This document shows positions 3,612-42,255 of a stretch of DNA of 64,000 nucleotides, piece after piece. How positions within the stretch are numbered: the first letter of the stretch is position 1; every line of letters starts with the position of its first letter. This stretch comes from Alphaproteobacteria bacterium (GTDB lineage: Bacteria; Pseudomonadota; Alphaproteobacteria; UBA2966): the NCBI GenBank assembly GCA_018654745.1, contig JABILA010000085.1, positions 74,191 to 138,190 of the forward strand. Reading direction: 5' to 3'. The position numbers and the translations under genes are program-made. A model generated the notes under the pieces. That model was not told where the DNA came from. It was given only the letters and a program-made list of their open reading frames with translations, and ran no database searches.

Positions 3612-3615
3612 CCGG

Positions 3616-4359: not shown

Positions 4360-4380
4360 TCTCTGACAGCTGAGGGTCCT

Positions 4381-17839: not shown

Positions 17840-17866
17840 GTGGAAAAGCCTCCTCTTGGTCCGATG

Positions 17867-20332
17867 TTATGCAGGGTTAATGATGATGTTGCCGACATCA
17901 TCAATTTCGCCCACATGGTCGGGCAGGATCAGCGTGGTTGAATCCATTTCAGTGACAACCGCCGGACCGCGGACCTTGTCCCCGGCTTTCAGCAAACTGC
18001 GGTCATAAATTTTTGCCGCATGGTTTTTACCATTGGCGTAAACATTGGTGTCTTCGTAGACGGCTTGTGAACCATCGCCCCCTCCTTGCGGCAGGCGTTC
18101 GGCGGTAGCTGTACTTTCACCGCCCTGAACCATGGCTCGCAGATTATATAATTCGCGCTGGGTATCCAGTTTAAAGGTGAATAGCTGTTCATGCAGGTCA
18201 TCAAACTGGCGACCCAGTTCCTTCAGACCCTGGCTTTTGAATTCTTCCGGTGTCATGTCCACCGTCAGGCGCATACCCTGACCGGCATAGCGCAGATCAA
18301 TCTGATAGAGGGTTGTTTGCTCGTCACGCGGCACGCCTTCGTCGTTGAGGACTTCGGCCGCCTGGGTTGCAAGTTCTTCCAGAACACCAAGCACTTCCTG
18401 ATCCGAGGTTTCGTCAAAGCGACGTACATAGGTGCGCGCCGCTTCGTTTCGCACCCGCGTTGTGGCATCGCCGTAAGCACACAACACGCCAGGTCCTGGT
18501 GGAATGATCACCGGCCACGAATTCATTAATCTACCAAGCGCATTGGCGTGAATGGGGCCTGCACCACCAAAGCCGATCAGGGCAAAGTCGCGCGGATCAA
18601 AACCCTGCTCCACCGACACAAGTCGCAAGGCACCAAACATATTTTCGTTGACGATGTTGACGATGCCTTCTGCGGCTTCCAGCATTGAAAGCCCCATGGC
18701 ATCGGCAACGTTTTTAACCGCCTTTTCCGCCGCCGCCCGATCCAGTGGCATGTCACCGCCCAGTTTGGCAGTTGAGGGCAGATAACCCAGCACAACATTG
18801 GCATCGGTTACGGTTGGTTCGGTTCCGCCCATGCCATAGGCCGCAGGTCCGGGCTCTGCGCCGGCACTTTGTGGTCCCACACGCAAGGCTTTGGTCAGTT
18901 CCGGCACATAGGCAATGGAGCCACCACCTGCACCAACCGTGCGCACATCAACGGAGGATGCCCGTACCGTAATATCCGCCACCCTGGTTTCGCGGCGGGT
19001 TTTGGCCACACCATCCTGGATCAGCGCCACATCGGTTGAGGTTCCGCCCATATCAAAGGTCAGCAAGTCCTTGTAACCGGCCTGTTTTGCCATCCAGATG
19101 GCACCGGAGACACCACCAGCCGGGCCCGACATCAACAGGTTCACCGGCAATTCCTTGGCACCGTCAGCAGAAGACAAACCACCGTCCGAGCGCAGGATAT
19201 GCAATTGCGTGCCACCCGTGCGACGATCCAGTTCCGACATCAGGTTTTCAATATATTTCGAGACAACCGGCCGGATATAGGAGTTCACGACCGTTGTTTC
19301 AGCTCGTTCATATTCATACATTTCCGGCACAATTTCCGACGAAATCGAAATCGGCACGTCCGGCATAACTTCCTGGGCGATCTCGCGAATGCGACGTTCG
19401 TGCGCCCCATTGGTATAGGAATTCATCAGGGAAACGGTCAGTGCTTCAATGCCATGTTTTGACAGGGCTGCCAGATCAGTGCGTAGTTTCTGTTCATTCA
19501 GCGCATCAACTGTTTCACCCTTGGCACTCATGCGCTCGTCAGCTTCAATGGTCAGCTCAAGCGGTGCCAGCGGATCGGTTTTGTTGAAAATCACCCAGCC
19601 GCCAAGGCCACCCGGCACATAGGACCGGGCAATTTGCAGGGTTTGTTTATACCCCTTGGTCATCACCAGCCCCACTTTGGCACCGGAGCCGGTCAGAACT
19701 GTGTTGGTTGCAACCGTTGTGCCGTGCATCACCTGGCCAATGGATGTTGGTTCTATCCCGGCGAGGCCGCATATCTTTTCAACACCGTTCAGGACGCCAA
19801 TGGAAGAATCCTGTGGGGTTGAAGGCACTTTGGCCGTAAAGGTTTGCCCGGATTTTTCCTCGATTAAAAGAAGATCGGTAAAGGTACCGCCAACATCCAC
19901 ACCCAACAGATAATCCCCACCTGATGGCGTACGTCGACGTGGTGCGTCGCGGGTATCGCTGACCGGCTTTGGTGCGACGGGCACAGGTGCTGGCGCCTTG
20001 CGAGCTTCCGGCGCGGGTTGGCGATTTTCTGGTTGCGGCACATATGAAGAAGGCTGGGCCGGTGCCGGAGATGACGCGGCGGCTGACCCGCCACTCATGG
20101 CCGGTGCGACAGTCGGTGTAGGTGCGATGACCGGTGCAGATGACGCAGACCCGTTTGATGTTTGCACAGGTGCAATCGATGGAGCCGCATTCGCTGTCGA
20201 CCGGGCCTCTGCACTGCCAGAGTCGCGACTGCCGCCAGATTTTTTAACGCCGCCCAGTTGGTCAAATTCGTTTTTGAAATCATCCAGCTGTGTGTCGAAC
20301 CAGCCAGTCAGATCTTTATTATCTTTTGTCAT
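17867..20332 (-). CDS. hyuA: Hydantoinase A/oxoprolinase family protein (alpha subunit), copy 1, with an N-terminal extension of about 140 aa (helix plus Pro/Ala/Ser-rich linker)
   Basis: The HyuA core begins at aa 141 (LLGVDVGGTFTD). Residues 1-140 are an amphipathic helix, DLTGWFDTQLDDFKNEFDQLGG, followed by a low-complexity P/A/S-rich segment. Confidence 0.85.
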   Translation of the reverse strand: MTKDNKDLTGWFDTQLDDFKNEFDQLGGVKKSGGSRDSGSAEARSTANAAPSIAPVQTSNGSASSAPVIAPTPTVAPAMSGGSAAASSPAPAQPSSYVPQPENRQPAPEARKAPAPVPVAPKPVSDTRDAPRRRTPSGGDYLLGVDVGGTFTDLLLIEEKSGQTFTAKVPSTPQDSSIGVLNGVEKICGLAGIEPTSIGQVMHGTTVATNTVLTGSGAKVGLVMTKGYKQTLQIARSYVPGGLGGWVIFNKTDPLAPLELTIEADERMSAKGETVDALNEQKLRTDLAALSKHGIEALTVSLMNSYTNGAHERRIREIAQEVMPDVPISISSEIVPEMYEYERAETTVVNSYIRPVVSKYIENLMSELDRRTGGTQLHILRSDGGLSSADGAKELPVNLLMSGPAGGVSGAIWMAKQAGYKDLLTFDMGGTSTDVALIQDGVAKTRRETRVADITVRASSVDVRTVGAGGGSIAYVPELTKALRVGPQSAGAEPGPAAYGMGGTEPTVTDANVVLGYLPSTAKLGGDMPLDRAAAEKAVKNVADAMGLSMLEAAEGIVNIVNENMFGALRLVSVEQGFDPRDFALIGFGGAGPIHANALGRLMNSWPVIIPPGPGVLCAYGDATTRVRNEAARTYVRRFDETSDQEVLGVLEELATQAAEVLNDEGVPRDEQTTLYQIDLRYAGQGMRLTVDMTPEEFKSQGLKELGRQFDDLHEQLFTFKLDTQRELYNLRAMVQGGESTATAERLPQGGGDGSQAVYEDTNVYANGKNHAAKIYDRSLLKAGDKVRGPAVVTEMDSTTLILPDHVGEIDDVGNIIINPA

Positions 20333-20398
20333 ATCTGTTCTTCCACCGTCGCAAGCCTGAGGTCGGGAAAATATCTGGATAATGGTAAGACGGGCAGA

Positions 20399-21046
20399 TC
20401 AGGGCGCATTGCGACCCCGCCAGGCCTCTATCCATTCAATAACGCTGTCGGTATCGGTGATGTCAGCATACCGTCGGCCGACATCCCGCAGATTGTCGTT
20501 GTGGGGTCGCTCGTCATGATCACCGACACCATCTTCCGGTACAATCGTTCGATACCCGAACTGAAAACTGTCGATCACAGATGCCCTGATGCATCCAGAT
20601 GTAACACAGCCCACCAAAATCACCGTATCAACTTTTTGTTTGACCAAAAACGGTACGATGGGTGTCTGGAAAAATATCGATGCCCCGGTCTTGCACATTT
20701 TGACGTCATAGGCGGGATCGTAAATTCTGGAATCCAGTTCCGTGCAAGGGTGGCCGTGGATCAAATCTTCACGAACCGCACGCACTTTCCAGTACGGCAT
20801 ATCCTCAAGAGATTTGTAGGCCGTATAACAAGTAGCGACCGGCACCTCGCAGCGCCGCGCGACGTCCAGCAAGCGCGCAGCGTTGTCGACAGCCCTGTCG
20901 ATCAGGGGCGCGCCCCCCAGCGGATATTTTTCTTCGGTAAAAGCGGTCTGGAAATCAACAACAACAATGGCAGGCCGATCGCCATAGCCAATGGTTTCCG
21001 TGCCATAGGTCCGCTCATGATATGTCGCTTCAGAAACGTCGCTCAT
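20399..21046 (-). CDS. Isochorismatase-family cysteine hydrolase (N-carbamoylsarcosine amidase-like), copy 1
   Basis: Core VDTVILVGCVTSGCIRASVIDSFQFGYR. The start was taken at MSDVSE with a GGGGAGA RBS. The longer ORF version (to 21163) would run through palindromic leader repeats. Confidence 0.75.
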   Translation of the reverse strand: MSDVSEATYHERTYGTETIGYGDRPAIVVVDFQTAFTEEKYPLGGAPLIDRAVDNAARLLDVARRCEVPVATCYTAYKSLEDMPYWKVRAVREDLIHGHPCTELDSRIYDPAYDVKMCKTGASIFFQTPIVPFLVKQKVDTVILVGCVTSGCIRASVIDSFQFGYRTIVPEDGVGDHDERPHNDNLRDVGRRYADITDTDSVIEWIEAWRGRNAP

Positions 21047-21203
21047 GATATCTCCCCTGATCGCGCACTGTGGTACCACAGCAAGATTGTCGTGGCGCCA
21101 CAGCAAAACCTGTCGTGGCGGTTCCACTGCATCGATAATTTCTGCGGCCCCCCGTTTGGGCAAGACAACAGTCTGTTTTCGTTGTGATCGAAAACACGCC
21201 GAT

Positions 21204-21217
21204 TTGTATACTATAAT
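21204..21217. promoter_or_regulatory. TTGTATAC motif immediately followed by TATAAT in a divergent promoter region
   Basis: Reads tTTGTATACTATAATgg. The same TTGTATAC core recurs at 26095, 41144, 37898, 41081 and 1274. Confidence 0.4.
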
Positions 21218-21369
21218 GGCTGAAAGGAATTTGTCGCGAAAGCACTAATACCAGGAAATATTTTATTCCAATCTACCCTTCAGACAATCGACACCCCGCA
21301 ATTCGAATGCTAGCCTTGCCCCGGTACAGTTGACGATAGGCAAATCCAACCCTGCTTGAGGTAATTCTC

Positions 21370-22455
21370 GTGGACAGCAAGTCAATCGCATTCCTGGAAG
21401 TCATGATTGCCCTTGGCGTCATAGGTATTCTGGCGTTTCTGGTATACCTGATTTCCCGTTTTGCCATGCACAACCGTGCCAAAACAGCGGTTGGAAAGAC
21501 CGTTGGCTACACCCCGCAGTGGTATGAATTCCTGTTGGCGGCGATCATAGTTGTCGTCGCAGCCATCTTGTTCCTCTGGCAGTTTCCACCCGGTGGGCGC
21601 GCAGACTGGGGTGAAGATTCACGTTCGATGACGTTCTTTGTCATTATGATGATCATTTGTGCCGTCGGCATTATTGTATTCCTTCTGACCGTCTTCTGGC
21701 GCATCGCCCAGACCCCGAAGGAAGCGCCAGCAGAAATCCTGACCGCCTCTGCTACCCCTTCGCCAGCACCGGCAGAGGAAACCGGGCCCGTCAAAGCCCG
21801 ACACGAATCACCCTCAGCCGTCAGATTGCTGGGTCTTCTGGGCTTTGTTGTCGCCTTTCTGGTTCTGAACTGGACCTGGGTCTCCTACGCTGATCAGTAT
21901 TTCCTGATGTTGAATCTGGTCTATCCGGCCGGCCTGGTCGTGGCCCTGGTGATGTTGTTTGACAAGGCCAACAGGGCCTGGAATGTCAAATTGCCGGGTG
22001 AGACGATCCGCGAATGGTTTTTCCTGGATGCAATACTGTTTCTTTATATCCTGGCGTATCTGAACCTGAGGCAGGCAGGCGGTGGTGAAAATTACACTGC
22101 CCAGTTCTGGGATGTCGTTAATGTTGTCGGCTTTTTGTTTGTCTTCTGGATCATTGATCGCAAGACCACCAGCCTCAGGTTTCTGGTCACACACATATAC
22201 TTCCTGGCCCTGCCGATCTTATTGCTGATCTGGCGTTCGGTTCAAGGCGTCGAAATCGCCGCAGATATTTCCTGGTGGAGTACGATCTGGCCGTTTTTTG
22301 CCCTGGCTGCCGTCTTCCTGGTGCTGGAATTCATTATTCTGATAATCAATCGTGAAAGTGATAATCAGACGGTCGGCACGGTCAAGGACGTCATATTCCT
22401 TATACTTTATGTGATTTTATTACTGGCGGCCCGGCCGGAAGTTGCAGCTTCATGA
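21370..22455 (+). CDS. Polytopic integral membrane protein of unknown function (about 9 TM segments)
   Basis: GTG start with a GAGGT RBS; ATG at 21403 is an alternative. Highly hydrophobic. Its stop overlaps the amidase ATG (ATGA). Confidence 0.55.
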   Translation: MDSKSIAFLEVMIALGVIGILAFLVYLISRFAMHNRAKTAVGKTVGYTPQWYEFLLAAIIVVVAAILFLWQFPPGGRADWGEDSRSMTFFVIMMIICAVGIIVFLLTVFWRIAQTPKEAPAEILTASATPSPAPAEETGPVKARHESPSAVRLLGLLGFVVAFLVLNWTWVSYADQYFLMLNLVYPAGLVVALVMLFDKANRAWNVKLPGETIREWFFLDAILFLYILAYLNLRQAGGGENYTAQFWDVVNVVGFLFVFWIIDRKTTSLRFLVTHIYFLALPILLLIWRSVQGVEIAADISWWSTIWPFFALAAVFLVLEFIILIINRESDNQTVGTVKDVIFLILYVILLLAARPEVAAS

Positions 22456-23864
22456 CAGATCTGGCACGCCTTGGCATTGCCGAACTGGGCGATCTGATCG
22501 CAAAAGGTGAAGCCTCACCTGTTGAAGTGATGCAGTCGACGCTGGCCAGGATCGACCGCCTTGATGGCGGATTAAACGCATTTCTGTCGATCTATCCTGA
22601 CCAGGCACTGGCGGCAGCGGCAAAAGCCGAAAAGGAACTCGCAAATGGTCAGTCTCGTGGGCCTTTGCATGGGGTCCCGCTTGGCATCAAGGATTTGTTT
22701 GAAGTCGAAGGCATGACCCGAACCTGTGGATCAAACCTGATCCAGGAACCGCCAGCAGAAAAAGACGCCACCAGCGTCGCCCGTCTGAAAGATGCCGGTG
22801 CGATTGTGGTTGGTCTTTTGAACCTCAATGAATTCGCCTATGGCCCGACCGGAATCAATATTCATAAAGGCTCCGCCCGCAACCCCTGGGATCGGAGCAA
22901 AACCTGTGGTGGATCAAGTGCCGGTGCTGGATGCGCTGTTGCCGCCGAACTGGTGCCAGGTGCCATGGGCACGGATACGGGTGGCTCGATCCGCATTCCG
23001 GCCTCGGTTTGTGGTGTGGTCGGATTAAAGCAAACCTTTGGCCTCGCCAGTCGACACGGTATTTATCCATTATGTGACAGTTTTGATCATGGCGGTCCCC
23101 TGACCCGCACCGTGCGTGATGCGGCCTTGATGTTACAGGCGTTCGCCGGTGAAGATTTGCATGACTTTACGACACGCGGCGCACGTACAGACAACTATTC
23201 GGCCCGGCTTGGTCAATCTATCAAGGGCCTCAAGGTTGGTGTCCCCACATCATTTTTCTTCGACGATGTACATGCAGACACGGTAGCCGCCGTGCGCGCC
23301 GCGATTCAGGTTTTCAGTGATCTCGGCGCGGACGTTCAGGAAGTGGACGTGCCATTTGGTCAGGATGCTGTCGACAGCTGGAATACCATGGCCATGGCAG
23401 AAGCCTTTGTTGTCCATGAAGACCATATGGCCACCAACAAATATGACCTGGCACCGGATGTCAGCAGCCGTCTTGAGCTTGGCCGTAACATCAGCGCCCG
23501 GGATTATCTGGCATCGCGGGAACATCAAACCCGGGTCAAACAGGAAATGCAGGCCTTTATGGCGGACTATGATGTGCTTGCCATGCCAACTTCACCGATT
23601 CCGGCGATTTCGATTGAGACTGGCACAGCAAACCTGAACGGACGGGAAGTTGATGGCGCACCAATTATGGGGCGGCTGACACGAATGGCTGTGTTTACCG
23701 GCCAACCGGCGATCAGTGTACCTTGCGGGTTTACGAACGAGGGTTTGCCCATTGGCTTGCAACTAATGGGGCACTGGTTTGACGAGGCCGCTTTGCTGGG
23801 GGCTGCCGATGCCTATGAACAGGCAACAAGTTGGCACACGATGGTGCCACCGGAGATTAATTGA
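22452..23864 (+). CDS. Amidase signature (AS) family amidase
   Basis: Carries GGSSAGAGCAVAAELVPGAMGTDTGGSIRIPAS, the AS signature with the Ser-cisSer-Lys triad context. Confidence 0.85.
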   Translation: MTDLARLGIAELGDLIAKGEASPVEVMQSTLARIDRLDGGLNAFLSIYPDQALAAAAKAEKELANGQSRGPLHGVPLGIKDLFEVEGMTRTCGSNLIQEPPAEKDATSVARLKDAGAIVVGLLNLNEFAYGPTGINIHKGSARNPWDRSKTCGGSSAGAGCAVAAELVPGAMGTDTGGSIRIPASVCGVVGLKQTFGLASRHGIYPLCDSFDHGGPLTRTVRDAALMLQAFAGEDLHDFTTRGARTDNYSARLGQSIKGLKVGVPTSFFFDDVHADTVAAVRAAIQVFSDLGADVQEVDVPFGQDAVDSWNTMAMAEAFVVHEDHMATNKYDLAPDVSSRLELGRNISARDYLASREHQTRVKQEMQAFMADYDVLAMPTSPIPAISIETGTANLNGREVDGAPIMGRLTRMAVFTGQPAISVPCGFTNEGLPIGLQLMGHWFDEAALLGAADAYEQATSWHTMVPPEIN

Positions 23865-23953
23865 TCACACGACCTGGTTGCCTGAATATGGAAGCCTGGG
23901 ATAGGATTTATGAAAATGTGTACGAAAAACGGATTTTGCAGGGGGATAAGTGA

Positions 23954-24433
23954 ATGAGTGGCTGGCAATGGTTTTGGACCCTGGTGGGTTTCATTGTTTA
24001 TATTATCGTTCTGATTTTCCTGTATTTCTACGAGCCCTTCAAAGACCTGTTCAATCTGGTTGTCTATGGCCTCAGCTATAGCAATGCCATCTTCTGGGCG
24101 GGTGTAATAATCGGCATTGTCGGATTTTGCACTTTCCACTGGCGCGCCTACCGGCTGCACATCGTCAAACAAAAAAGCGTTGAATCGATGGTCCTGAGTT
24201 CCCTGCGCGGATCAACTTTTGTGGCCATTTTGCTCAGTGCCAGTGCTGCATTGCAGGCCGTACAAATGCTGTGTGTGCATCTGTTGCAACCCGGCTACGC
24301 CATCGATGCCGCCTTTGGCAAACGCCTGACCGCGGTACTCGCCTTGCTGATCCTGACCGGTTTGTTCTGCATCCTGTTCTGGCTGTTGAAAATCATGCGG
24401 TCACCCAAAACGTCGGTACCTTCAACGGTTTGA
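23954..24433 (+). CDS. Small 4-TM membrane protein of unknown function (paralog of 38139-38663)
   Basis: 159 aa with a CAGGGGGA RBS. It shares LIFLYFYxPF, IFW..V.GI, HW and ALQAV.ML..HL blocks with the second copy. Confidence 0.6.
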   Translation: MSGWQWFWTLVGFIVYIIVLIFLYFYEPFKDLFNLVVYGLSYSNAIFWAGVIIGIVGFCTFHWRAYRLHIVKQKSVESMVLSSLRGSTFVAILLSASAALQAVQMLCVHLLQPGYAIDAAFGKRLTAVLALLILTGLFCILFWLLKIMRSPKTSVPSTV

Positions 24434-24460
24434 TTGGAACCTGAGAAATCAAAACACGTC

Positions 24461-24558
24461 GTCACTCCGGGCTTGACCCGGAGTCTCTGTAGCCTATCCA
24501 GTGAAACTTGGGCCTGATTTCAAACGCCGTTGAGACTCCGGGTCAAGCCCGGAGTGAC
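24461..24558. repeat. REP/MITE-like element, copy 1: 27-bp arms GTCACTCCGGGCTTGACCCGGAGTCTC in inverted orientation around a 44-nt spacer
   Basis: Arms at 24461-24487 and 24532-24558. Each arm is itself hairpin-forming (CCGGG...CCCGG). An identical-arm copy lies at 43193-43291. Both sit between convergent gene ends. Confidence 0.7.
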
Positions 24559-24607
24559 GGAGGGTTAAGAGGATACTTTCGTCGTTACAAGCGCAGACCG
24601 TTTACGT

Positions 24608-26059
24608 TTACCCGCCGTTTCGCGAACCCGGGGCCCGTGACGGGATATCGCCGGAACGGCCTGGCGTGTACATGCCGCCATAGGCGCCGCGCTTGACGAA
24701 GTTGCCATCGCCCTTTTGGCCCAGATACTGACCCTTGTCGATGATCATGCGACCTCGGCTGAAGACGGTTTCGGTGAAGCCTTTCACCGGCATGCCTTCA
24801 TAAGCGTTGTAATCGATGTTCATGTGATGGGTATGACCGTTGTAATAGCTGATGATCTCTTCGCGTTCAGGATCGAAGATCACGATGTCGGCGTCACTAC
24901 CCACAGCAATGGTGCCCTTTTTCGGGAACAGGCCAAAGATTTTGGCGGGTGAGGTTGATGTCAGTTCGACAAAACGGTTGATGTCCAGGTATCCCCCGTT
25001 GACGCCATAGTGATAGATCAGGCTCATACGGTTTTCGATGCCGGGGCCGCCATTGGGGATCTTGCTGAAGTCGCTTTTGCCCAGTTCCTTCTGTTCTTTC
25101 ATGCAGAATGGGCAATGATCCGTTGAAATGGCGTTCAGGGCATTGCCGCGCAATCCGCGCCACAGTTCTTCCTGGTTCCACTTTTCCCTGAGCGGCGGTG
25201 TCAGCACATATTTAGCGCCCTCAAAACCTGGCTCATCATATTTGTCGACATCCAGCAGCAGGTATTGCGGGCAGGTTTCAGCATGGGCCATGACGCCACG
25301 GGCCTGGGCCATGCGCAGCTCCTGCAGCGAGTCATAGCTGCTAAGGTGTACAATGTAGACCGGCGACTTCGCCACTTCGGCAATTGCCAATGCACGGTGA
25401 ACGCCCTCTGCTTCGAGGCGTGTGGGCCTGGTCAGGGCATGATATTTGGGTTCAATGTGGCCTTCCGACAGGGCGATCTTGATCAGCTCATCGATCACAA
25501 CACCATTTTCCGCGTGCATGCAAATCAGCGTACCGTCTTCGCCAGCCTGGCGCATGGCCCGGAATATTGTGCCGTCATCAGACATCATGGCCCCTGGATA
25601 GGCCATAAACATTTTGTAACTTGTGACCCCTTCGTCCGCCAGCGCCCGCATTTCCTTTGTGCGCGTTTCCGGCATATCTGTCAGGATCATATGGAAGGCA
25701 TAATCAATCGCTGTTTCCCCGGCAGCCTTGGCATGCCACGTTTCCAGGGCTTCCAGAGACGACTGCCCCTTCATCTGAACGGCGAAATCAATGATGCAAG
25801 TGGTGCCTCCGAATGCGGCGGCACGTGTGCCTGTTTCGAACGTATCCGACGTGGTTGTTCCACCAAAGGGAAGCTCGAGATGCGTGTGCGGATCGATACC
25901 GCCAGGGATCACCAGCTTGCCTGCGGCATCAACCACAACATCGGCTTCCAGTTGCAGATTTTTGCCAATCAGGTCAATCGTGTCGTCATTGACATAGATA
26001 TCTGCGTGATAGTCGTCTGTTGCCGTTACGATCCGGCCATTCTTGATTAATACGCTCAC
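24608..26059 (-). CDS. D-hydantoinase / dihydropyrimidinase (cyclic amidohydrolase)
   Basis: 483 aa from a GTG start with a GGGGAGG RBS. Starts MSVLIKNGRIV...GGIDPHTHL and has a carboxylated-Lys region. It has a C-terminal Gly/Pro-rich tail of about 25 aa. The longer ORF to 27061 is an artefact. Confidence 0.85.
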   Translation of the reverse strand: MSVLIKNGRIVTATDDYHADIYVNDDTIDLIGKNLQLEADVVVDAAGKLVIPGGIDPHTHLELPFGGTTTSDTFETGTRAAAFGGTTCIIDFAVQMKGQSSLEALETWHAKAAGETAIDYAFHMILTDMPETRTKEMRALADEGVTSYKMFMAYPGAMMSDDGTIFRAMRQAGEDGTLICMHAENGVVIDELIKIALSEGHIEPKYHALTRPTRLEAEGVHRALAIAEVAKSPVYIVHLSSYDSLQELRMAQARGVMAHAETCPQYLLLDVDKYDEPGFEGAKYVLTPPLREKWNQEELWRGLRGNALNAISTDHCPFCMKEQKELGKSDFSKIPNGGPGIENRMSLIYHYGVNGGYLDINRFVELTSTSPAKIFGLFPKKGTIAVGSDADIVIFDPEREEIISYYNGHTHHMNIDYNAYEGMPVKGFTETVFSRGRMIIDKGQYLGQKGDGNFVKRGAYGGMYTPGRSGDIPSRAPGSRNGG

Positions 26060-26089
26060 AAAATGCCTCCCCTGATCAATCTGGTTTGC

Positions 26090-26102
26090 TATAATTGTAT
26101 AC
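26090..26102. promoter_or_regulatory. TATAAT-TTGTATAC motif, followed by a TTGTAT repeat, in the divergent promoter between the D-hydantoinase and the ABC transporter
   Basis: Reads gcTATAATTGTATACTGTTGTATca. Confidence 0.4.
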
Positions 26103-26236
26103 TGTTGTATCATCTTGCACACTACGTGATCACAGAAATCATTAATTGGCCTTTGAGAATGACCAGGTAATAGTTTGAGATCGTGTTCATTCGCGTTAAG
26201 GCCGGAAAAATAACAATCGCTCCAGGGAGAACGAAG

Positions 26237-27508: not shown

Positions 27509-27664
27509 TAACCGACGTTCCCAAAGCGGAGCGCAGTTGCGACAAGACTGGAGCCGGTGTGGCCTTTGCCGCACCGGCCCCTTTTTCGTCAGGACTGAAT
27601 TATTACGATCAATGTAGAGCGAAGCGGTCTGGACAGGACCCTGGGGAAGCACGAAAATACGGAC

Positions 27665-28645: not shown

Positions 28646-28646
28646 A

Positions 28647-29474: not shown

Positions 29475-29480
29475 GACGTT

Positions 29481-30581: not shown

Positions 30582-30593
30582 ATACCTTACCCG

Positions 30594-33407: not shown

Positions 33408-33469
33408 AATCGTCCCTACACTTGCTTTTTAGATTTGAGTTTCGGAAACATAACCAAGCGAGCTTTCAC

Positions 33470-35743
33470 TCATGATACACCTGTTTTTCGCTCACCGAAA
33501 TCGAACAATTCCAGTGCTTTTCGACCGTGTTTCAAAGCCTCGCGTAAATCTGTTGTGGCTCTGAGATCAAGTTCATGCCGTCGCCCACCAATGACAACGC
33601 CATAGGCTTCGCGGGCTTTGTCCAGGGTCGTCAACTTGCGGGCGACATCATTTCTGACACGCTGTGGATCACGCTCAAGCGGATCACCCCAGCCTCCACC
33701 GCCAGCCGTTCGAAAGACAATTCTATCGCCTTCTTCGACCCGCACGTTATCAATTTTTGAGGGCAAGGGTTCGGGTTCAGCGTTGCCACGAATAATCCAT
33801 TTTGCCGAGCAAGCACCGGGTTGTCCGCCAAGAATACCCCAGGGCTGTGATTCATGACGATCGTCATGAATAGAGACGTCGCCCGGTTCCAGCAATCGAT
33901 AGACTTTTTCTATACCATTGCCGCCGCGATGTTTACCGGCACCACCGGTATCCGCAACGGAGCCATAACGCTCGATGACCATGGGATAGAAATTTTCGAG
34001 ATATTCCGTGGGAATGTTTTCAAACAAAGGCCACCAGGAATGGCCGTCCATGCCGTCACCGACCGGACGTCCCGGAATACCACCATAGAGAATTTCCATG
34101 AGCTGGAACGGTCGTTTATGACTGTCCGTGCCGGAAAACAGGAAATGTGGACTGGAGCCATAACCCGCAGCCGTTGCCATCTCGGGTGCGTGACGACTGA
34201 GGGCACCGCCCATAACATCAAACTGGCGCGACAGGGCATGGGTGCGACAACCCAGCGCTGCCGGGAATTCAGGATTAACCAGCGACCCCTTGGGCAGGGT
34301 CACATGAATCAGATCATAAAAGCCGTCATTAAACAAAATCTGCGGATCAAAAACCATGATCATGTAGACGCCAATGAACATCTTGAACATGCCGTCATGC
34401 AGATAGAAATTAATCGGACCCGGTGCCTGGGCCGACGTTCCGGTCCAGTCAAAATAAGCGTGATCCCCTTCGCGCCAGACCGTCAGCTTCATTTTGAAGG
34501 GACCGTTACCGCAACCATCGTCATCCACAAAGTCTTCGAAATATTGGGGCTCTTCCGGCAGGTTTTGTACGATCAACTTGCGCATGGCCCGGTTGGTGCG
34601 TTCCAGCAAGGCTTCGCAGGCCTGCTTATAGGTCCCGGTGCCAAAGCGATCACAGATTTCGATCACCCGACGTTCACCGGCACGACACCCGGCAACAATG
34701 GCCATCAGGTCACTGTAATTCATTTCCGGGGTGCGGGTGTTGTTCATCAGGATATCAAGGGCGGCTTCGTTCAGGACCCCGGCGTCATAAATCTTGATCG
34801 GCGGGATGCGCATACCTTCGCCAAAGATCGAGGTCGCTGCCGTCGGCATGCTGCCCGGCACGGGGCCACCAACATCCATCATGTGGCCAAACATCGACGC
34901 AAAACCAACCAGTTCCGGATTTGATTTCGCGCCCACAAAGACCGGGATCAAAACCATCCAGTCATTGATATGGCTGATGGCACCGCCGCACTTATAGGGA
35001 TCACTTTGCAGGATCACGTCACCTGGTTTGAGATCAAAATCCTGCTGCTTCAGCATCTCGGAAATATAAGAGCCGAACTGGCCGACGATCATGCGCCCGT
35101 CGGCATCTGTGATCATGGGAAATTCGTCATGCTGTTCACGGATTACCGGCGACATGGCCGACCGGAACAACAAGGCATCCATTTCGTGGCGCGCATTGCG
35201 CAAGGCATTTTCGATCAGGTCCAGGGTCACAACGTCCAGAGGACCTGCAACTGCCACTGCACCTTTGCCAGCACGGGCAGCAGGTGATTTGGGTGACTGA
35301 TCCTCTTCCACCGACGGGGCCGGCGCACGTCCGGTGAACTGATCCGCACATCGTAGGGCTGCTTCGGTCGCAGCCTGCTCAAAAGCCAGTGCCCAGTTGC
35401 CGTCCAGCGAGGCTGAGCCCTGATCTGCCTTGGATTGCCCCTCTACCGTCAACTTGATGCGGACAATCGCTTTATCATTGTCGGATTTGACATCAATGAT
35501 GTCGTGCGACCAGTCAAAATCAAATCGCCTGTTCAAGGCGACGACCGCTGCCGTGGCCAGTTTCAGATTGCCTGGCACCTGATTGTCTGATTGTGACCCG
35601 GCCTGACTGGCCGGTCGGGCGCTGGGGCTGAGCAAACTGGCATCGTCCATCTGGCGACTGAACAGCTGGTCAAACTGGTCCTTGTTGGCGGTCAACAAGT
35701 CGTCCAGCGAAATGGGAGTGCGCGTGCGGGTTTCTTCAGACAT
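33470..35743 (-). CDS. hyuB: Hydantoinase B/oxoprolinase family protein, copy 2, with an N-terminal extension of about 170 aa (helix, linker, small beta-rich module, P/A-rich linker)
   Basis: The HyuB core begins at about aa 170 (VVTLDLIENALRNAR). The ATG lies 2 nt after the hyuA-2 stop. The extension opens with ISLDDLLTANKDQFDQLFSR. Confidence 0.8.
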   Translation of the reverse strand: MSEETRTRTPISLDDLLTANKDQFDQLFSRQMDDASLLSPSARPASQAGSQSDNQVPGNLKLATAAVVALNRRFDFDWSHDIIDVKSDNDKAIVRIKLTVEGQSKADQGSASLDGNWALAFEQAATEAALRCADQFTGRAPAPSVEEDQSPKSPAARAGKGAVAVAGPLDVVTLDLIENALRNARHEMDALLFRSAMSPVIREQHDEFPMITDADGRMIVGQFGSYISEMLKQQDFDLKPGDVILQSDPYKCGGAISHINDWMVLIPVFVGAKSNPELVGFASMFGHMMDVGGPVPGSMPTAATSIFGEGMRIPPIKIYDAGVLNEAALDILMNNTRTPEMNYSDLMAIVAGCRAGERRVIEICDRFGTGTYKQACEALLERTNRAMRKLIVQNLPEEPQYFEDFVDDDGCGNGPFKMKLTVWREGDHAYFDWTGTSAQAPGPINFYLHDGMFKMFIGVYMIMVFDPQILFNDGFYDLIHVTLPKGSLVNPEFPAALGCRTHALSRQFDVMGGALSRHAPEMATAAGYGSSPHFLFSGTDSHKRPFQLMEILYGGIPGRPVGDGMDGHSWWPLFENIPTEYLENFYPMVIERYGSVADTGGAGKHRGGNGIEKVYRLLEPGDVSIHDDRHESQPWGILGGQPGACSAKWIIRGNAEPEPLPSKIDNVRVEEGDRIVFRTAGGGGWGDPLERDPQRVRNDVARKLTTLDKAREAYGVVIGGRRHELDLRATTDLREALKHGRKALELFDFGERKTGVS

Positions 35744-35745
35744 AT

Positions 35746-37845
35746 CTAGTTCTGCCCCGCCGCTGATTGACCCGCAACTGATTGTGTCACCAAAGCCTGC
35801 CCTTCGGGATGGATCAGGATATTCAGATATTCATCGACATCACCGGCATAACCCGGATGGATGACACAGGTCGAATCTTTTTGAACCACAATGGCCGGGC
35901 CTGAGATATGGTTTCCGGCCTCCAGCTTGTTGCGGTCGTAAACGCCGGTGTTCACAAAGCTGCCGTCAAAATACACCTGGTCCTGACGCAACAAGGCGGA
36001 AGACGCATCGGGTCCGGCTTTTTCAAACTTTGGAAACGCAACCTTGTCCACCTGGCCTGTACCGATCACACGCAAATTGACGATCTCAACCGGTTGATCA
36101 AGTTTGAAGCCATATTGGCGTTCATGGGCGGCACCAAAATCGGCGGCCAGACCAGCAAGACCTGATCCTTGCAGCTTTTCCGGATCGACATCCAGGCTGA
36201 ATTCATAACCCTGACGGAAATAGCGCACATCAGCCTGATAGCGCACTTCACGTCCGGTCTGGCCCAGGCCTTCTTCCTGCAGCCAGGCGTTGGCTTCGGC
36301 CCCTAGGCCGTTCAGAATATCGACGACCTCGGACACTTCTATATCGTCGATGGTCCGGGCAAAGGTACGGGCAAATTCGTTTTTGATATCGGAATACAGG
36401 AAACCCAGCGCCGATAATACGCCAGGCGTTGGCGGCACAATGACCGGGAAACAACCAGCCAGAATACCCATGGCGTTGCCATGCAAAGGCCCGGCACCAC
36501 CAAAAGCCACCAGCGCAAAGTCCCGTGGATCAAGGCCTTTTTGCACAGAGACCAGACGCAAGGCACCAAACATGTTTTCGTTGACGATATTAAGAATGCC
36601 TTCCGCCGTCTGGTGCAAATCAAGCCCCAGCGCACCGCCCAGTTTAGAGACGGCATCCTTGGCGGCCTGAACATCCAGGGACATGCTGCCGCCCAACAGG
36701 CTGGGAGGCAGGCGACCCAGAACAACGTTGGCATCCGTAACAGTTGGCGCATCACCGCCATGGCCGTAACAAGCCGGTCCAGGCCGGGCACCAGCGCTGT
36801 CGGGACCCACGCGCAAGGCACCGGTCATCGGTACATGGGCAATGGAGCCACCGCCTGCACCGACGGAATGAACTTCGACAGACGGCACCTTGATCGGATA
36901 GTAACCCAGCTGGGTTTGACGCGACAAATTGGGCGTTCCGTTCTGGATCATCGACACATCGGTTGAGGTGCCGCCCATATCGAAACCCAGGGCGTTTGGA
37001 TACCCGGCCAATGTGGCCAGGTAAGCGGCACCGGATACACCACCGGCGGGGCCGGACAACATGGTATGAACCGGAGATTCGGTTGCCCGTGCAACACTCA
37101 TCAAGCCGCCGTCGGAACGGACAATATTAACCTTGGGACTGAACTGGATACCGCGCAGTTTTTCTTCGAAGCCTTTCAGATAGCGCCCCATGCTGGGTCG
37201 CACATAGGCGTTCATCACTGTCACCAGTGTGCGCTCATATTCACGGAACTCCGGCAGCAATTCTGACGACAGGGAAATGGGAATATTGGCATCCATTTCC
37301 TGGATCATGGCCTTGAGGCGTTTTTCGTGTGACGGGTCCGCATAGGAATGCATCAATGAGATGGTAATCGACTCGACACCTGAATCCAGGAGCTCACGGA
37401 TACTCTCACGGGCCAGGGTCTCTTCCATGGGGGTGATGATATCGCCGCGCGCAGAAATGCGTTCCTGTATGCCGCGGGTAAATTCCAGATCCGCCAGCGG
37501 GTCCGGCTTTATCATGATCATCCAGCCAGCCAGAGGGCCGGGCGTCTGTGATCGTGCCAGATGCAGGACTTGCTCAAATCCTTCGGAGACCAGTAAACCA
37601 ACCCTGGCACCTTTTTCCTCGAGCACGATATTTGTAGATACTGTGGTGCCATGCAGCAGGGCTTCGATGCTCGACGGCGACACGCCGGTTTCACGCACCA
37701 ATTCTTCAATACCATTGTGAATGCCGACGGATTGGTCAGCCGGAGTCGAGGGCGTCTTTAACAGATGCATGGCACCTGTTTCGCCGTCAAATAGCAGGAG
37801 ATCGGTAAACGTCCCCCCTACATCAATGCCAAGTCGACTTGACAT
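35746..37845 (-). CDS. hyuA: Hydantoinase A/oxoprolinase family protein, copy 2
   Basis: 699 aa starting MSSRLGIDVGGTFTDLLLF. GGAGG RBS. Confidence 0.85.
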   Translation of the reverse strand: MSSRLGIDVGGTFTDLLLFDGETGAMHLLKTPSTPADQSVGIHNGIEELVRETGVSPSSIEALLHGTTVSTNIVLEEKGARVGLLVSEGFEQVLHLARSQTPGPLAGWMIMIKPDPLADLEFTRGIQERISARGDIITPMEETLARESIRELLDSGVESITISLMHSYADPSHEKRLKAMIQEMDANIPISLSSELLPEFREYERTLVTVMNAYVRPSMGRYLKGFEEKLRGIQFSPKVNIVRSDGGLMSVARATESPVHTMLSGPAGGVSGAAYLATLAGYPNALGFDMGGTSTDVSMIQNGTPNLSRQTQLGYYPIKVPSVEVHSVGAGGGSIAHVPMTGALRVGPDSAGARPGPACYGHGGDAPTVTDANVVLGRLPPSLLGGSMSLDVQAAKDAVSKLGGALGLDLHQTAEGILNIVNENMFGALRLVSVQKGLDPRDFALVAFGGAGPLHGNAMGILAGCFPVIVPPTPGVLSALGFLYSDIKNEFARTFARTIDDIEVSEVVDILNGLGAEANAWLQEEGLGQTGREVRYQADVRYFRQGYEFSLDVDPEKLQGSGLAGLAADFGAAHERQYGFKLDQPVEIVNLRVIGTGQVDKVAFPKFEKAGPDASSALLRQDQVYFDGSFVNTGVYDRNKLEAGNHISGPAIVVQKDSTCVIHPGYAGDVDEYLNILIHPEGQALVTQSVAGQSAAGQN

Positions 37846-38138
37846 TGCACCTCCCTGTTTTTCAGCCTCGTTAAGACTTGATGGCCAAATACGTCAAACC
37901 CCGAAAATGTATACAACATTTACAGGGTTATTATTCAGCCCCTACCCCGGATACTTGATTGTAGCCTTATTATCGTCGATTGGGCCCTTGTATGATTCTC
38001 TAACCAGCGTCCCGGGTCAACGCCCGAATAGACTTTGTATGCAAAATAACCACATCAGTTTGACAGAAACGCAATTACATGTACCATTCGGCCAGTGAGG
38101 TACGCCCACATCTCGAACTTCAATGGATAATAAGAACG

Positions 38139-38663
38139 ATGTCAGATGAAATAGCAGATCGCCGTCGGCCCCGTTTCTGGATTGGCCTGCTCGCCTTCAT
38201 TATTCTGCTGATATTTCTGTACTTCTATACGCCGTTTGAGACGTTGGTGAAGGACAGTATTCCAAATATCCATTTCAACAATGTAATCTTCTGGTTTGCC
38301 TCGGTCGTGGGCATCATTGCCTATGCCGTGTCGCACTGGCAGTCCTTCCGCAACAATCTCTCCAGCCATGTTTCTGATCTGAACGTGCCGGTCCTGGTCT
38401 TCGATACCCTGCAGGTTTCGATCCTGATCGCCGTGATCTTCTGCGCCGGTGCAACCTTGCAGGCGGTAGCCATGCTGGCGGAACATCTCATGAGCAGTGC
38501 GCCGATTATTGGCTCAGGGCTTGGTGAAAACCTGTTGGCGATTGTGTTGCTGGTGGTGATGGCGGTGTTGTTCTACCTGCTGCACCATGTCGTCCGCGCC
38601 TTCCGCGACGGCTGGCAAACACGCAGGCCACCCCGGTTTGGATCATCTTCGTCTGACGGCTGA
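38139..38663 (+). CDS. Small 4-TM membrane protein of unknown function (paralog of 23954-24433)
   Basis: The start was chosen by alignment with its paralog (MSDEIADRRRPRFWIGLLAFIILLIFLYFYTPFE). It is divergent from hyuA-2. Confidence 0.55.
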   Translation: MSDEIADRRRPRFWIGLLAFIILLIFLYFYTPFETLVKDSIPNIHFNNVIFWFASVVGIIAYAVSHWQSFRNNLSSHVSDLNVPVLVFDTLQVSILIAVIFCAGATLQAVAMLAEHLMSSAPIIGSGLGENLLAIVLLVVMAVLFYLLHHVVRAFRDGWQTRRPPRFGSSSSDG

Positions 38664-38666
38664 TAA

Positions 38667-39722: not shown

Positions 39723-40046
39723 CTAGTCCGCCGTCAGGTCGGCAATCAAGTCATCAGCCAGCGGATCAAAGGACCGCCCGGTCAGGGTTTCCGCCTGGGC
39801 CCACATTTGCGCCAGATTATCGACAATGGCCGTTTTGCCGGTATTGCCCTTGAGGATATAGGCATTGCCTGACCAATCCTTGAGGCCGAGACCATAATGC
39901 CCAAGAACGCGGTTAACGATGCGGGTGCGTTGCTGGCGTTCCCGAAGGGATGTCCCCGGATCTGATTGTGCGGCAAAGGCATCCGGGTTTGTTGACTGGT
40001 CCGTCCAGTGACCCCGCCCGCCAAGGACACCACACAGGCCACACAT
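39723..40046 (-). CDS. Hypothetical small protein (107 aa) beginning MCGLCG, translationally coupled to the COG0523 GTPase
   Basis: Its stop abuts the GTPase ATG, and its ATG lies 6 nt after the deacetylase stop. No family recognised. Confidence 0.45.
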   Translation of the reverse strand: MCGLCGVLGGRGHWTDQSTNPDAFAAQSDPGTSLRERQQRTRIVNRVLGHYGLGLKDWSGNAYILKGNTGKTAIVDNLAQMWAQAETLTGRSFDPLADDLIADLTAD

Positions 40047-40051
40047 ATCCG

Positions 40052-41065: not shown

Positions 41066-41143
41066 CCCAAAAAATCCCCCTGTATACTTTGTTGTGATTA
41101 TTTTTAATCCTGGCCTTGTTATTCTGCAATCAGATCATGTTTA

Positions 41144-41151
41144 TTGTATAC
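41144..41151. promoter_or_regulatory. TTGTATAC motif (aTTGTATACTAagg) in the divergent promoter between the deacetylase and the isochorismatase copy 2
   Basis: Same 10-nt core, TTGTATACTA, as at 21204. A further GTATAC lies at 41081-41087. Confidence 0.4.
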
Positions 41152-41156
41152 TAAGG

Positions 41157-41248
41157 CGGTTCCAGTTTGAACGGAACCGCAATAATTCGAATGTTGCCTC
41201 ATACTTTGGGGTTTGAGGCAACGCTGCGTTTCCGTGAAACCCGGAAAC
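41157..41248 (+). promoter_or_regulatory. Structured 5' leader: three consecutive hairpins upstream of the isochorismatase copy 2 gene
   Basis: Hairpin A 41157-41179: 7-bp stem CGGTTCC/GGAACCG. Hairpin B 41194-41221: 8-bp stem TTGCCTCA/TGAGGCAA. Hairpin C 41228-41248: 7-bp stem GTTTCCG/CGGAAAC. Confidence 0.35.
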
Positions 41249-41312
41249 GCTCTAGGGCGTCTTCAATGAAACCTGTTTCTCAGAAAATGCGACGGGACAA
41301 CCAGGGAGAAAG

Positions 41313-42041
41313 TTGTTGAGCGATTGGCAAGACGAAACACTGCAGAGTTATCAGAACAAGGGCCTGGGCTCTCGTGCCGGGTTCGGCAAACGTCCGGCAT
41401 TGTTAATAGTGGATTTCATTAACGGATTTACCGACCCGTCTTCGCCGCTGGGTGGTGATTTTTCGAGCCAGTTGGCCGTGACCGGTCAATTGCTGGAAGT
41501 TTTCCGCCGCGAACGGCTGCCCATCGCATATACCACTATTGAATATGACGCCGATTATCGCGATGCCGGTGTCTTTATCAAAAAGGTCCCATCGCTTTCG
41601 GTGCTGCTGCGGGGCTCTCCCATGTGCAATATCGATGATCGTATCCGCCCCGAAACCGGCGAATATATTGTCTCCAAAAAATACGCCAGCAGCTTCTTCG
41701 GCACCAATCTGGATACCTGGTTGCGCAACAATGACGCCGACACCGTTGTCATTGTCGGCTGCACCACAAGCGGATGCGTCCGCGCTTCTGCCGTTGATTC
41801 GCTGCAATACGGTTATTACACCATCGTTGTCCGGGAAGGCTGCGGTGACCGGGCAGATGGCCCCCACGAAGCCAATCTTTTTGATATGGACGCCAAATAT
41901 GCTGACGTTGTCTCGACTGCAGAAGCCCTGGACTATGCCAACGGCCTGACCCGCAAACCTGATTCTCATGCAGCGCGTGTAGCTGGCCGCAACTTCAAAA
42001 GCTGGTGGGCCGAAGGCAACACAGACAAGCAGGAAGGATAG
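41313..42041 (+). CDS. Isochorismatase-family cysteine hydrolase (N-carbamoylsarcosine amidase-like), copy 2
   Basis: TTG start with an AGGGAGA RBS. Carries VVIVGCTTSGCVRASAVDSLQYGYY. It is a paralog of 20399-21046. Confidence 0.75.
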   Translation: MLSDWQDETLQSYQNKGLGSRAGFGKRPALLIVDFINGFTDPSSPLGGDFSSQLAVTGQLLEVFRRERLPIAYTTIEYDADYRDAGVFIKKVPSLSVLLRGSPMCNIDDRIRPETGEYIVSKKYASSFFGTNLDTWLRNNDADTVVIVGCTTSGCVRASAVDSLQYGYYTIVVREGCGDRADGPHEANLFDMDAKYADVVSTAEALDYANGLTRKPDSHAARVAGRNFKSWWAEGNTDKQEG

Positions 42042-42045
42042 ACCG

Positions 42046-42255
42046 ATGTCCGGAAAATACACCTCTGCCTTTGATGACATGCTGGCCAGTAATGAAAAGC
42101 AGATGAACGATGTCCTGGGTGTATCACCGGCATCCCGGCACCAGAGCAAACCCGTCGCAGCAGAGCAAGCACCTGTCCCGGACACGTCCCGGGCAGCGAC
42201 CAGTGATACGGTGTCGGGCACGGCCAATGGCATCCCTTTTACCCTGAAAACCTGA
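42046..42255 (+). CDS. Small protein (69 aa): N-terminal helix homologous to the HyuA-1 and HyuB-2 N-terminal peptides, followed by a Pro/Ala/Ser-rich disordered tail
   Basis: AGGAAGGA RBS. AFDDMLASNEKQMNDVLG aligns with LDDLLTANKDQFDQLFS (HyuB-2) and FDTQLDDFKNEFDQLGG (HyuA-1). Confidence 0.45.
   Translation: MSGKYTSAFDDMLASNEKQMNDVLGVSPASRHQSKPVAAEQAPVPDTSRAATSDTVSGTANGIPFTLKT

Follow-up and report, generated by a model that had tools for sequence, protein, structure and literature searches.

A conserved N-terminal helix shared by hydantoinase-type enzymes and a small protein encoded near a giant flotillin is a candidate docking element

Two paralogous gene pairs for hydantoinase-type enzymes (hyuA-1/hyuB-1 and hyuA-2/hyuB-2), a gene for a giant flotillin and a small gene encoding a protein of 69 amino acids (aa) lie in the window analyzed here, a 64,000-nucleotide (nt) stretch of contig JABILA010000085.1 from an uncultured alphaproteobacterium (Table 1). 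HyuA-1, HyuB-2 and the 69-aa protein begin with the same short helix, which is acidic and amphipathic, is about 17-20 residues long, sits at the extreme N-terminus and is separated from the rest of each carrier by 30-140 residues of flexible sequence. A first-pass annotation of the window had pointed out this common opening and read it as a possible docking or encapsulation peptide; the three sequences were found where it had placed them, and our profile alignments fell into the register it had used. It had also noted that a single subunit of each pair carries the helix, which agrees with Pfam matches that place the beginning of HyuA-2 and of HyuB-1 at the catalytic core. Judged by their sequences, each enzyme carrier is predicted to be a subunit of an ATP-dependent cyclic-amide hydrolase complex, HyuA-1 in HyuA-1/B-1 and HyuB-2 in the paralogous HyuA-2/B-2.

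The core common to the three helices is phi-D-x-x-L-x-x-x-[KR]-x-x-phi-D-x-[LI]. Hydrophobic residues fall at positions 2, 6, 9, 13 and 16 of the helix, which is the a/d spacing of a heptad repeat, and position 9 holds Asn or Ser in helices of the HyuB-2 and small-protein types and Leu in those of the HyuA-1 type. The net charge is -3 to -4 in each of the three window helices and ranges from 0 (HyuB-2) to -4 among the family consensus sequences. The hydrophobic moment is moderate (0.37-0.52) and the mean hydrophobicity is about 0. This combination of acidic charge and moderate amphipathicity suggests a protein-protein interface rather than binding to anionic lipid. No family in Pfam or NCBIfam matched the motif, so the concern that it might be a known and ubiquitous domain did not materialize. 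When the HyuB-2 family profile was compared to the PDB, a weak match was obtained to 1zhc (E=0.053), the small helical protein HP1242 of Helicobacter pylori. This match spans 13 residues (HyuB-2 16-28, about 35660-35698, LLKANxxxFDKIF) and may be due to chance. The helix did not place in the DUF465/YdcH-like group either, with no Pfam match at E<=1 and a marginal resemblance in the PDB only.

In order to follow the helix in other genomes, orthologues were collected by full-length searches, which gave more than 120 proteins for HyuB-2 (750-784 aa, covering 97-100% of the query) and more than 100 for HyuA-1 (about 780-850 aa), and by an exhaustive phmmer search, which gave 11 relatives of the 69-aa protein (67-82 aa). 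Gene neighborhoods were collected by scanning one genome per species with the flotillin as query, which resulted in 80 loci (L016-L095), all in metagenome-assembled genomes (MAGs), and by a reverse scan of metagenomes with the HyuB-2 N-terminus, which resulted in another 80 loci. The cluster was found in about 130 loci, spread over uncultured alpha-, beta- and gammaproteobacteria and SAR324, and each of these lies in a MAG or on a metagenome contig; the 80 species-level genomes with a giant flotillin cluster included 0 cultured isolates. The helix was retained by the HyuB-2 and HyuA-1 orthologues and by the small-protein relatives, with drift in the linkers, and the alignments thus bore out that motif and extension are kept together, for either enzyme in more than 100 orthologues and likewise among the small proteins.

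None of the three points of failure named in the first-pass annotation applied, including the possibility that the true starts are internal and the extensions untranslated. Across 54 orthologous hyuB-2 genes, variation at the codon for D4 was 0.00, 0.04 and 0.43 at codon positions 1, 2 and 3, respectively, and at the codons for D14 and F17 it was 0, 0 and 0.26 each. Because the invariant motif residues vary at the third codon position and scarcely at the first two, the helix of hyuB-2 is translated and under selection at the protein level. In addition, the hyuB-2 ATG lies 2 nt past the hyuA-2 stop codon, so that the hyuB-2 start is coupled to that stop, and the small gene is preceded by the ribosome-binding site AGGAAGGA. 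HyuB-2 is 757 aa long in the JGI and ENA gene calls. In an NCBI record (GCA_018672995.1) it is a 726-aa protein whose start lies beyond the motif, 31 codons too late (window 35651-35743, minus strand). The conservation of the motif, the third-position drift and the ATG coupled to hyuA-2 indicate that this start is wrong, which corrects the public annotation of hyuB-2 in GCA_018672995.1.

Hidden Markov models (HMMs) built from the orthologue N-termini were each other's best non-self match among 893 reading frames of the window. The HyuB-2 profile found the small protein with E=0.13, and the small-protein profile found HyuB-2 with E=0.027. Profile-profile comparison with hhalign aligned HyuB-2 with the small protein (P=7e-10, probability 96.5%) and HyuA-1 with the small protein (P=1e-5, probability 82.6%), both in the register first proposed. 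Distant members of the small-protein family were informative as well. The small-protein profile and that of HyuA-1 each matched the helix YTSGFDEMLRQTRSRLADLGGG (locus L012) with E<0.01, and variants of this kind thus bridge the small-protein and HyuA-1 types; the helix YSSDFDNMLQRSRNRMDELGG (locus L011) had a clear match to the small-protein profile only. Taken as sequence statistics, these comparisons indicate that one motif is shared by the three families beyond chance.

The N-terminal extension of HyuB-2 contains more than the helix. AlphaFold2 predicted the helix at residues 13-34, with a predicted local distance difference test (pLDDT) score of 69-70 when the N-terminus was modeled alone and of 61-65 when the whole protein was modeled. 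Low-complexity sequence rich in Pro, Ala and Ser had been expected behind the helix; this holds for HyuA-1 and for residues 35-63 of HyuB-2, but HyuB-2 also carries a folded domain. Residues 64-137 were modeled with pLDDT >90 as a helix, three strands and a helix. The top nine PDB matches found by Foldseek for this segment were human RAD52 (E=4e-4 to 1.3e-3, probability 0.99-1.00), followed by double-stranded RNA-binding domain folds. The Pfam family PF04098 (Rad52_Rad22) did not match HyuB-2 of the window, and it matched eight of 31 orthologue N-termini (best E=8.6e-7); a precomputed PF04098 match was also found in one HyuB-2 orthologue. By its modeled structure the domain has the same helix, three-strand, helix fold as the N-terminal domain of RAD52/Rad22. 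Unlike RAD52/Rad22, however, it is located on a metabolic enzyme or in a free-standing protein encoded beside an isochorismatase gene, with no recombination genes nearby, and it is dispensable in about 12 full-length HyuB-2 orthologues. A metabolic enzyme is an odd setting for a recombination-type domain, which may serve here as a ring-forming hub or as a strand acceptor.

The domain and the helix are not distributed in the same way. No Rad52-like domain was detected in 16 of 64 flotillin-adjacent HyuB-2 reading frames, four of which are cut off or frameshifted. The full-length orthologues just mentioned, which are mostly gammaproteobacterial, keep the helix with the domain undetected (for example, ISLDEMLRSSRDQFDRLF), and all full-length flotillin-adjacent HyuB-2 proteins carry the helix. 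The helix is thus the universal element and is independent of the Rad52-like domain, which is optional.

The gene for the 69-aa protein follows isoC2, which encodes an isochorismatase-family hydrolase, in nearly all loci with room for it. The protein had been described as the helix plus a tail with no enzyme attached. No enzyme is attached, but the protein ends in a conserved strand, and it is better described as a reduced Rad52-like module than as a cargo-less copy of the helix. Members of this family occur in a long form (136-165 aa) with helix, linker and Rad52-like domain and in a short form (66-96 aa), as in the window, with helix, linker and strand only. The counterpart of this C-terminal strand in the long form is the GASGGVRFKVG element, which lies within the Rad52-like domain. 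Because the long forms have a Rad52-like domain holding the same strand element, the 69-aa protein is a pared-down paralogue of the module at the N-terminus of HyuB-2 (helix and Rad52-like domain). In one locus (L068), the Rad52-like domain is found in neither HyuB-2 nor the small protein.

HyuA-1 differs from HyuB-2 in what follows the helix. The linker of this family has a median length of 101 aa and is composed of 21% Pro, 18% Ala and 12% Arg. At least eight HyuA-1 orthologues have a second helix in tandem (LDxQLDxLxxRVxxLGNGG), about 35 residues past the first, which is as expected of a modular peptide. Tandem helices were recorded in P0129, P0132, P0134, P0135, P0139, P0140, P0142, P0154 and P0156, the last of which has back-to-back WFDDQL...WFDSQL. 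The catalytic cores match Pfam Hydantoinase_A and Hydantoinase_B with E=3e-90 and 9e-150. The nearest NCBIfam models are those of caprolactamase alpha (CapA, 533.8 bits) and beta (CapB, 239.6 bits), both below the equivalog cut-off of 1000. These models align with the catalytic cores alone, starting at residue 141 in HyuA-1 and residue 170 in HyuB-2, and leave the helix and linker uncovered. On sequence grounds the enzymes are thus assigned to the HyuAB family, with caprolactamase as the nearest named member and scores far below the equivalog cut-offs; the catalytic domains are shared among these proteins, caprolactamase, N-methylhydantoinase and 5-oxoprolinase.

The giant flotillin is encoded 62 nt past the hyuB-2 stop codon, as had been claimed, and this arrangement is a general one. 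A hydrophobic segment (residues 3-25), followed by YKR, precedes an SPFH domain (Pfam Band_7, PF01145, E=2.3e-13, residues 46-181), and the coiled coil contains seven 29-residue repeats in two blocks with the consensus E-x-x-E-I-x-R-x-L-A-x-E-x-x-E-K-D-R-x-I-A-L. In one orthologue (L015) exactly 29 and 58 residues are missing from the repeat blocks, so that the length of the coiled-coil wall varies by whole units. The flotillin orthologues are 54-78% identical across the 80 genome loci. This protein is not an equivalent of FloT or YqiK; its score with the NCBIfam FloT equivalog is 31.6 bits against a cut-off of 700. The cluster was absent from the plasmids in PLSDB when searched by tblastn with the flotillin, where the best matches were YqiK-type flotillins, 32-36% identical and confined to the first 39-47% of its length.

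The order isoC2, deacetylase, p107, cobW, mem194, hyuA2, hyuB2, flotillin and ATP-binding cassette (ABC) ATPase is near-invariant. hyuB2 is located directly before the flotillin gene in 72 of the 80 genome loci; in seven of the remaining eight the contig ends just upstream of the flotillin gene, and the other (L048) is rearranged. Among the 80 metagenome loci, 58 have more than 600 bp downstream of hyuB2, and a flotillin gene follows in 54 of these (49 by a strict positional test and five from gene tables), with less than 800 bp left in the other four. A helix-bearing hyuB2 followed by the flotillin is therefore the order in essentially every informative locus. The genes from isoC2 through the flotillin and the ABC ATPase form what we call module 2. 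Module 1 (15938-29474) comprises a solute-binding protein, permeases, mem159, an amidase, mem361, isoC1 and the pair hyuA1 (with the helix)-hyuB1. The two modules are adjacent in the window and in many other loci, and module 1 is also found alone. In two such cases (L176 and L177) the permease genes have no adjacent ATPase gene, while the ATPase gene is always the one past the flotillin gene of module 2, which implies that the modules are mutually dependent. In one genome an isolated hyuA1-type locus lies 5.9 Mb from the flotillin module on the same 7.33-Mb contig.

Several other genes of the two modules encode proteins without a recognizable family. Two paralogous four-helix membrane proteins of 159 aa (23954-24433, plus strand) and 194 aa (mem194) and a polytopic membrane protein of 361 aa (21370-22455, plus strand) had no Pfam or NCBIfam match, and the last is a conserved module component like the other two. 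A 107-aa protein (39723-40046, minus strand), which starts with MCGLCG and has no family match, has its gene between those for the deacetylase and CobW in 44 of the 80 genome loci and may be a metallochaperone accessory. An 817-aa reading frame (24608-27061, minus strand) is over-long. Gene callers place a dihydropyrimidinase-like amidohydrolase of 483-501 aa there, and the upstream part of the frame overlaps the solute-binding-protein gene on the opposite strand. Two genes for creatinase/prolidase-like M24 proteins and one creatininase gene are found on the flanks of the cluster (2454-5562; 48819-49541). The presence of creatinase-like, creatininase and N-methylhydantoinase-like HyuAB proteins along with isochorismatase-type amidases hints at creatinine- or hydantoin-like cyclic amides as putative substrates.

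Table 1 Positions of the genes and protein segments discussed in the text, numbered from the first letter of the window
Feature	Residues	Position	Strand	Evidence or remark
hyuA-1, hydantoinase/oxoprolinase A-type subunit, 142-residue N-terminal extension		17867-20332	-	Pfam Hydant_A_N, Hydantoinase_A and Hydant_A_C from residue 143
HyuA-1 candidate docking-type helix DLTGWFDTQLDDFKNEFDQLGG	7-28	20249-20314	-	[ST]xWFDxQLxxLKxEFDxLGG in >100 orthologues
HyuA-1 Pro/Ala-rich flexible linker	29-142	19907-20248	-	No Pfam match
hyuB-1, partner subunit without extension		15938-17839	-	Pfam Hydantoinase_B from residue 19
hyuB-2, B-type subunit, 169-residue N-terminal extension		33470-35743	-	Pfam Hydantoinase_B from residue 170
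HyuB-2 candidate docking-type helix ISLDDLLTANKDQFDQLFSR	11-30	35654-35713	-	vSLDDLLKANKxQFDx[IVL]F in all orthologues inspected
HyuB-2 linker 1, Pro/Ala/Ser-rich	35-63	35555-35641	-	pLDDT <50 at 37-53; poorly conserved, length variable
Rad52-like domain in HyuB-2 extension	64-137	35333-35554	-	AlphaFold2, Foldseek, and Pfam in orthologues
HyuB-2 linker 2	138-169	35237-35332	-	pLDDT <50 at 147-170; length variable
hyuA-2, partner subunit without extension		35746-37845	-	Pfam Hydant_A_N from residue 4
69-aa small protein: helix, linker, C-terminal strand		42046-42255	+	phmmer family
Small-protein candidate docking-type helix SAFDDMLASNEKQMNDVLG	7-25	42064-42120	+	Family consensus S.FDDLLA.N.KQMD.vLGG
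Small-protein C-terminal strand TVSGTANGIPFTLKT	55-69	42208-42252	+	SGTANG[IV]PF[RK]L kept in family
Giant flotillin, 937 aa		30594-33407	-	N-terminal membrane anchor, SPFH, long coiled coil, conserved C-terminal domain
ABC transporter ATPase gene		29481-30581	-	Pfam ABC_tran; directly downstream of flotillin; 75/80 loci
isoC2, isochorismatase-family hydrolase		41313-42041	+	Pfam Isochorismatase; 4 nt upstream of small gene
mem194, membrane protein without Pfam/NCBIfam match		38079-38663	+	Divergent from hyuA-2; paralogue of 23954-24433; 64/80 flotillin loci

A docking peptide invites a search for whatever the carriers might dock to and for other proteins that carry it. When the motif HMMs were run over the window and both sets of 80 loci (genome and metagenome), the carriers belonged to three families only, those of HyuB-2, HyuA-1 and the small protein; in these sequences a profile search of the kind suggested in the first-pass annotation thus turned up no further family. 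Nothing significant was found for the shell proteins of bacterial microcompartments (BMC-H, PF00936; BMC-P, PF03319) in a tblastn search over the window and 95 loci (about 1.9 Mb) with approximate PduA-like and EutN-like queries, and neither Pfam family was present on window genes. Likewise, Pfam matches to encapsulin (Linocin_M18/HK97-fold) were absent both from a scan of approximately 60 window genes and from the precomputed tables available for related loci. The absence of shell and encapsulin genes from the window, as first reported, thus extends to the related loci. Our literature search found no paper linking flotillin or Rad52-like domains to hydantoinases and none describing this arrangement.

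Taken together, we consider it probable that the helix is a trans-acting assembly or docking element of some kind. It is found on an A subunit, on a B subunit and on an enzyme-free protein, its tethers are long, and the Rad52-like domain beside it is dispensable, all of which points to a common external partner. In the reading we prefer, the helix would act in trans as a docking peptide that binds a partner shared by all carriers, and the long tether would leave the docked enzyme free to work. The partner would most probably be the giant flotillin as an SPFH scaffold, with the small protein in an adaptor-like role, encoded as it is beside the isochorismatase-family hydrolase. The enzymes of one catabolic pathway would in this way be gathered at the inner face of the membrane, beside the ABC importer. 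The flotillin is favored because its gene is wedged between the gene of a helix-bearing enzyme and that of the transporter ATPase, because it offers a large cytoplasmic surface, including the seven 29-residue repeats (orthologues differ here by whole repeat units), and because SPFH domes organize clients (PMC11348225, PMC13041759). For this statement as a whole, in which we infer the trans binding and, from synteny only, the partner, our support is tentative and stops somewhat short of an even chance. A more specific version, in which the giant flotillin forms a tall SPFH dome over the ABC importer, on the cytoplasmic side of the inner membrane, the helix is its cargo-loading peptide, and both HyuAB complexes and (via the adaptor) the isochorismatase-family hydrolase are tethered to it or inside it, is speculative and on the unlikely side. 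If true, it would describe a membrane-attached, flotillin-based enzyme compartment or transport metabolon of a type not described before.

A number of observations weigh against the flotillin docking just outlined. The flotillin was chosen for its conserved gene neighborhood alone, a criterion by which mem194, the ABC ATPase, CobW and HyuA-2 qualify just as well. Some loci with HyuA-1-type genes lack a flotillin gene within 10 kb, and co-occurrence of the HyuA-1 type and the flotillin module on the same contig was verified for only six of 14 contigs longer than 1 Mb. No other enzyme family with the motif was found within 10 kb of the flotillin genes or of the hyuB-2 starts. A signal for targeting in general should occur on a wider range of cargo types, and the motif is therefore not a general-purpose tag. 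The direct hhalign comparison of HyuB-2 with HyuA-1 is weak by itself (P=1.6e-3, probability 15.8%), in the same register as the others. Finally, the full-length AlphaFold2 model of HyuB-2 is mediocre (mean pLDDT 67) and thus a weak test of docking in cis. The docking or encapsulation reading of the first-pass annotation is accordingly supported in part: the terminal helix, the flexible linker and the single carrier subunit per complex resemble such a peptide, and the partner is proposed from synteny.

The main rival holds that the helices bind each other in a short coiled coil, homo- or hetero-oligomeric, and so join HyuA-1/B-1, HyuA-2/B-2 and the small protein, along with any protein bound to its C-terminal strand, into one multi-enzyme complex, in which case the flotillin would have a separate role such as organizing the transporter. 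The a/d pattern of the hydrophobic positions argues for it, as does the exchange of Asn for Leu at position 9, which is typical of short coiled coils that set their register, and it would fit the flexible tethers on all three carriers and the restriction of the motif to three families. However, a coiled coil that is stable in isolation would normally need more than about 2.5 heptads, the invariant adjacency of hyuB2 and the flotillin gene is left unexplained, and in four gammaproteobacterial loci (L055, L058, L059 and L066) HyuB-2 is the sole carrier within 10 kb of the flotillin and still keeps its helix, so that these loci do not require a coiled coil of three partners. We regard mutual binding as rather unlikely on this evidence. 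It is improbable that the helix instead belongs to the Rad52-like module itself, for example as a lid or an element of ring assembly, with oligomerization of the domain as its main task and the HyuA-1 copy derived or a remnant. The N-terminal domains of RAD52 do form rings (in PDB entries that were among the Foldseek matches), and the succession of helix, linker and Rad52-like domain occurs twice, in HyuB-2 and in the long form of the small protein. Against this, helices without the domain are found in about 12 full-length HyuB-2 orthologues and in all short-form small proteins, locus L068 lacks the domain in both, and none of the HyuA-1 orthologues listed contains it; in addition, AlphaFold2 packs the helix onto the domain without confidence (pLDDT of about 70, compared to >90 for the domain).

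The remaining alternatives keep the helix away from any protein partner outside its own complex. The presence of exactly one helix-bearing subunit in each paralogous pair might be taken to mean that the helix folds back in cis on its own HyuAB as a regulatory or pairing element (A-1 with B-1, A-2 with B-2), but an enzyme-free small protein bears the same helix, a contact in cis needs no linker of at least 100 residues, and the pLDDT of the helix is no higher in full-length HyuB-2 than in the isolated N-terminus. The low values in both models disfavor docking in cis, as weak evidence, and we consider it decidedly improbable. Direct binding to lipid, in the manner of the amphipathic helices of MinD or FtsA, would suit a terminal helix with the hydrophobic moment given above in a membrane-centered gene cluster. 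Known bacterial membrane-targeting helices are cationic, however, and bacterial membranes are anionic, whereas the helices described here are acidic to neutral with an invariant Asp at three positions and a hydrophobicity near 0, which makes a membrane-targeting role very improbable indeed. As for a chance resemblance or an extension that is not translated, the NCBI start of hyuB-2 and a database query with the fragment only, which returned no matches, would speak for it. That null result was a false negative of the word index, given that the full-length query returned more than 120 relatives with the extension, and the idea is refuted by the 757-aa gene calls, by the motif in hundreds of orthologues with synonymous drift and by the profile statistics. 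Docking in trans, with the flotillin as candidate partner, thus remains the reading we prefer.

To our knowledge, what bacterial flotillins scaffold and how their clients are recognized is largely open. The cluster provides a defined candidate system for this question, with one giant flotillin and, as proposed clients, three carriers of a 17-residue helix, and natural variants are available with or without the Rad52-like domain and with a duplicated helix. Should the helix prove to bind the flotillin, an SPFH assembly would for the first time have a cargo-type signal, and the peptide could serve as a portable tag in the engineering of membrane-proximal metabolons. If the helices bind each other instead, they would still represent a new wiring of paralogous HyuAB enzymes into one complex.

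In its layout the helix resembles the encapsulation peptides of BMCs (Pdu, Eut and the carboxysome), which are likewise terminal amphipathic helices (about 18 residues) that a flexible, poorly conserved linker tethers to the enzyme, and which only some subunits possess. The features that mark such peptides, a terminal helix of about 15-20 residues and a flexible linker, are present here in the helix predicted at residues 13-34 of HyuB-2 and in variable, Pro/Ala-rich linkers of low pLDDT. Unlike those peptides, however, the motif is strongly conserved and acidic, and the sole scaffold-like gene encodes an SPFH/flotillin membrane protein. The combination of a short conserved peptide, a long disordered tether and a neighboring gene for a candidate assembly is also like that of encapsulin cargo-loading peptides, including the N-terminal disordered domains of family 2; we know of no encapsulin loading peptide to which the motif is related. 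Because the defining shell genes were not detected in the window or the related loci, the helix is not a member of a BMC or encapsulin system, and its layout is docking-peptide-like.

Among SPFH proteins, the clients known to us are membrane proteins or binders with folded domains; we know of no case in which an N-terminal helix common to several soluble metabolic enzymes recruits them and of no short recognition peptide for SPFH clients. A flotillin-associated rhodopsin cluster of about 26 kb has been described in SAR11, HIMB59 and Pseudothioglobus, with a flotillin of about 659 aa (1,977 bp) (PMC10308929). The partner there is rhodopsin, with no HyuAB and no shared peptide reported, but as in the present case a flotillin gene lies within a conserved cluster of membrane and metabolic genes from uncultured marine bacteria. 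SPFH domed cages with clients have been described as well (PMC11348225, PMC13041759, PMC12280208). Like HflK/C-FtsH, stomatin with channels, the flotillin domes and the vault with the PARP4 INT domain, the protein described here is an SPFH protein with a long coiled coil that is encoded together with its presumed clients, and with its seven repeats it is much larger than YqiK or FloT.

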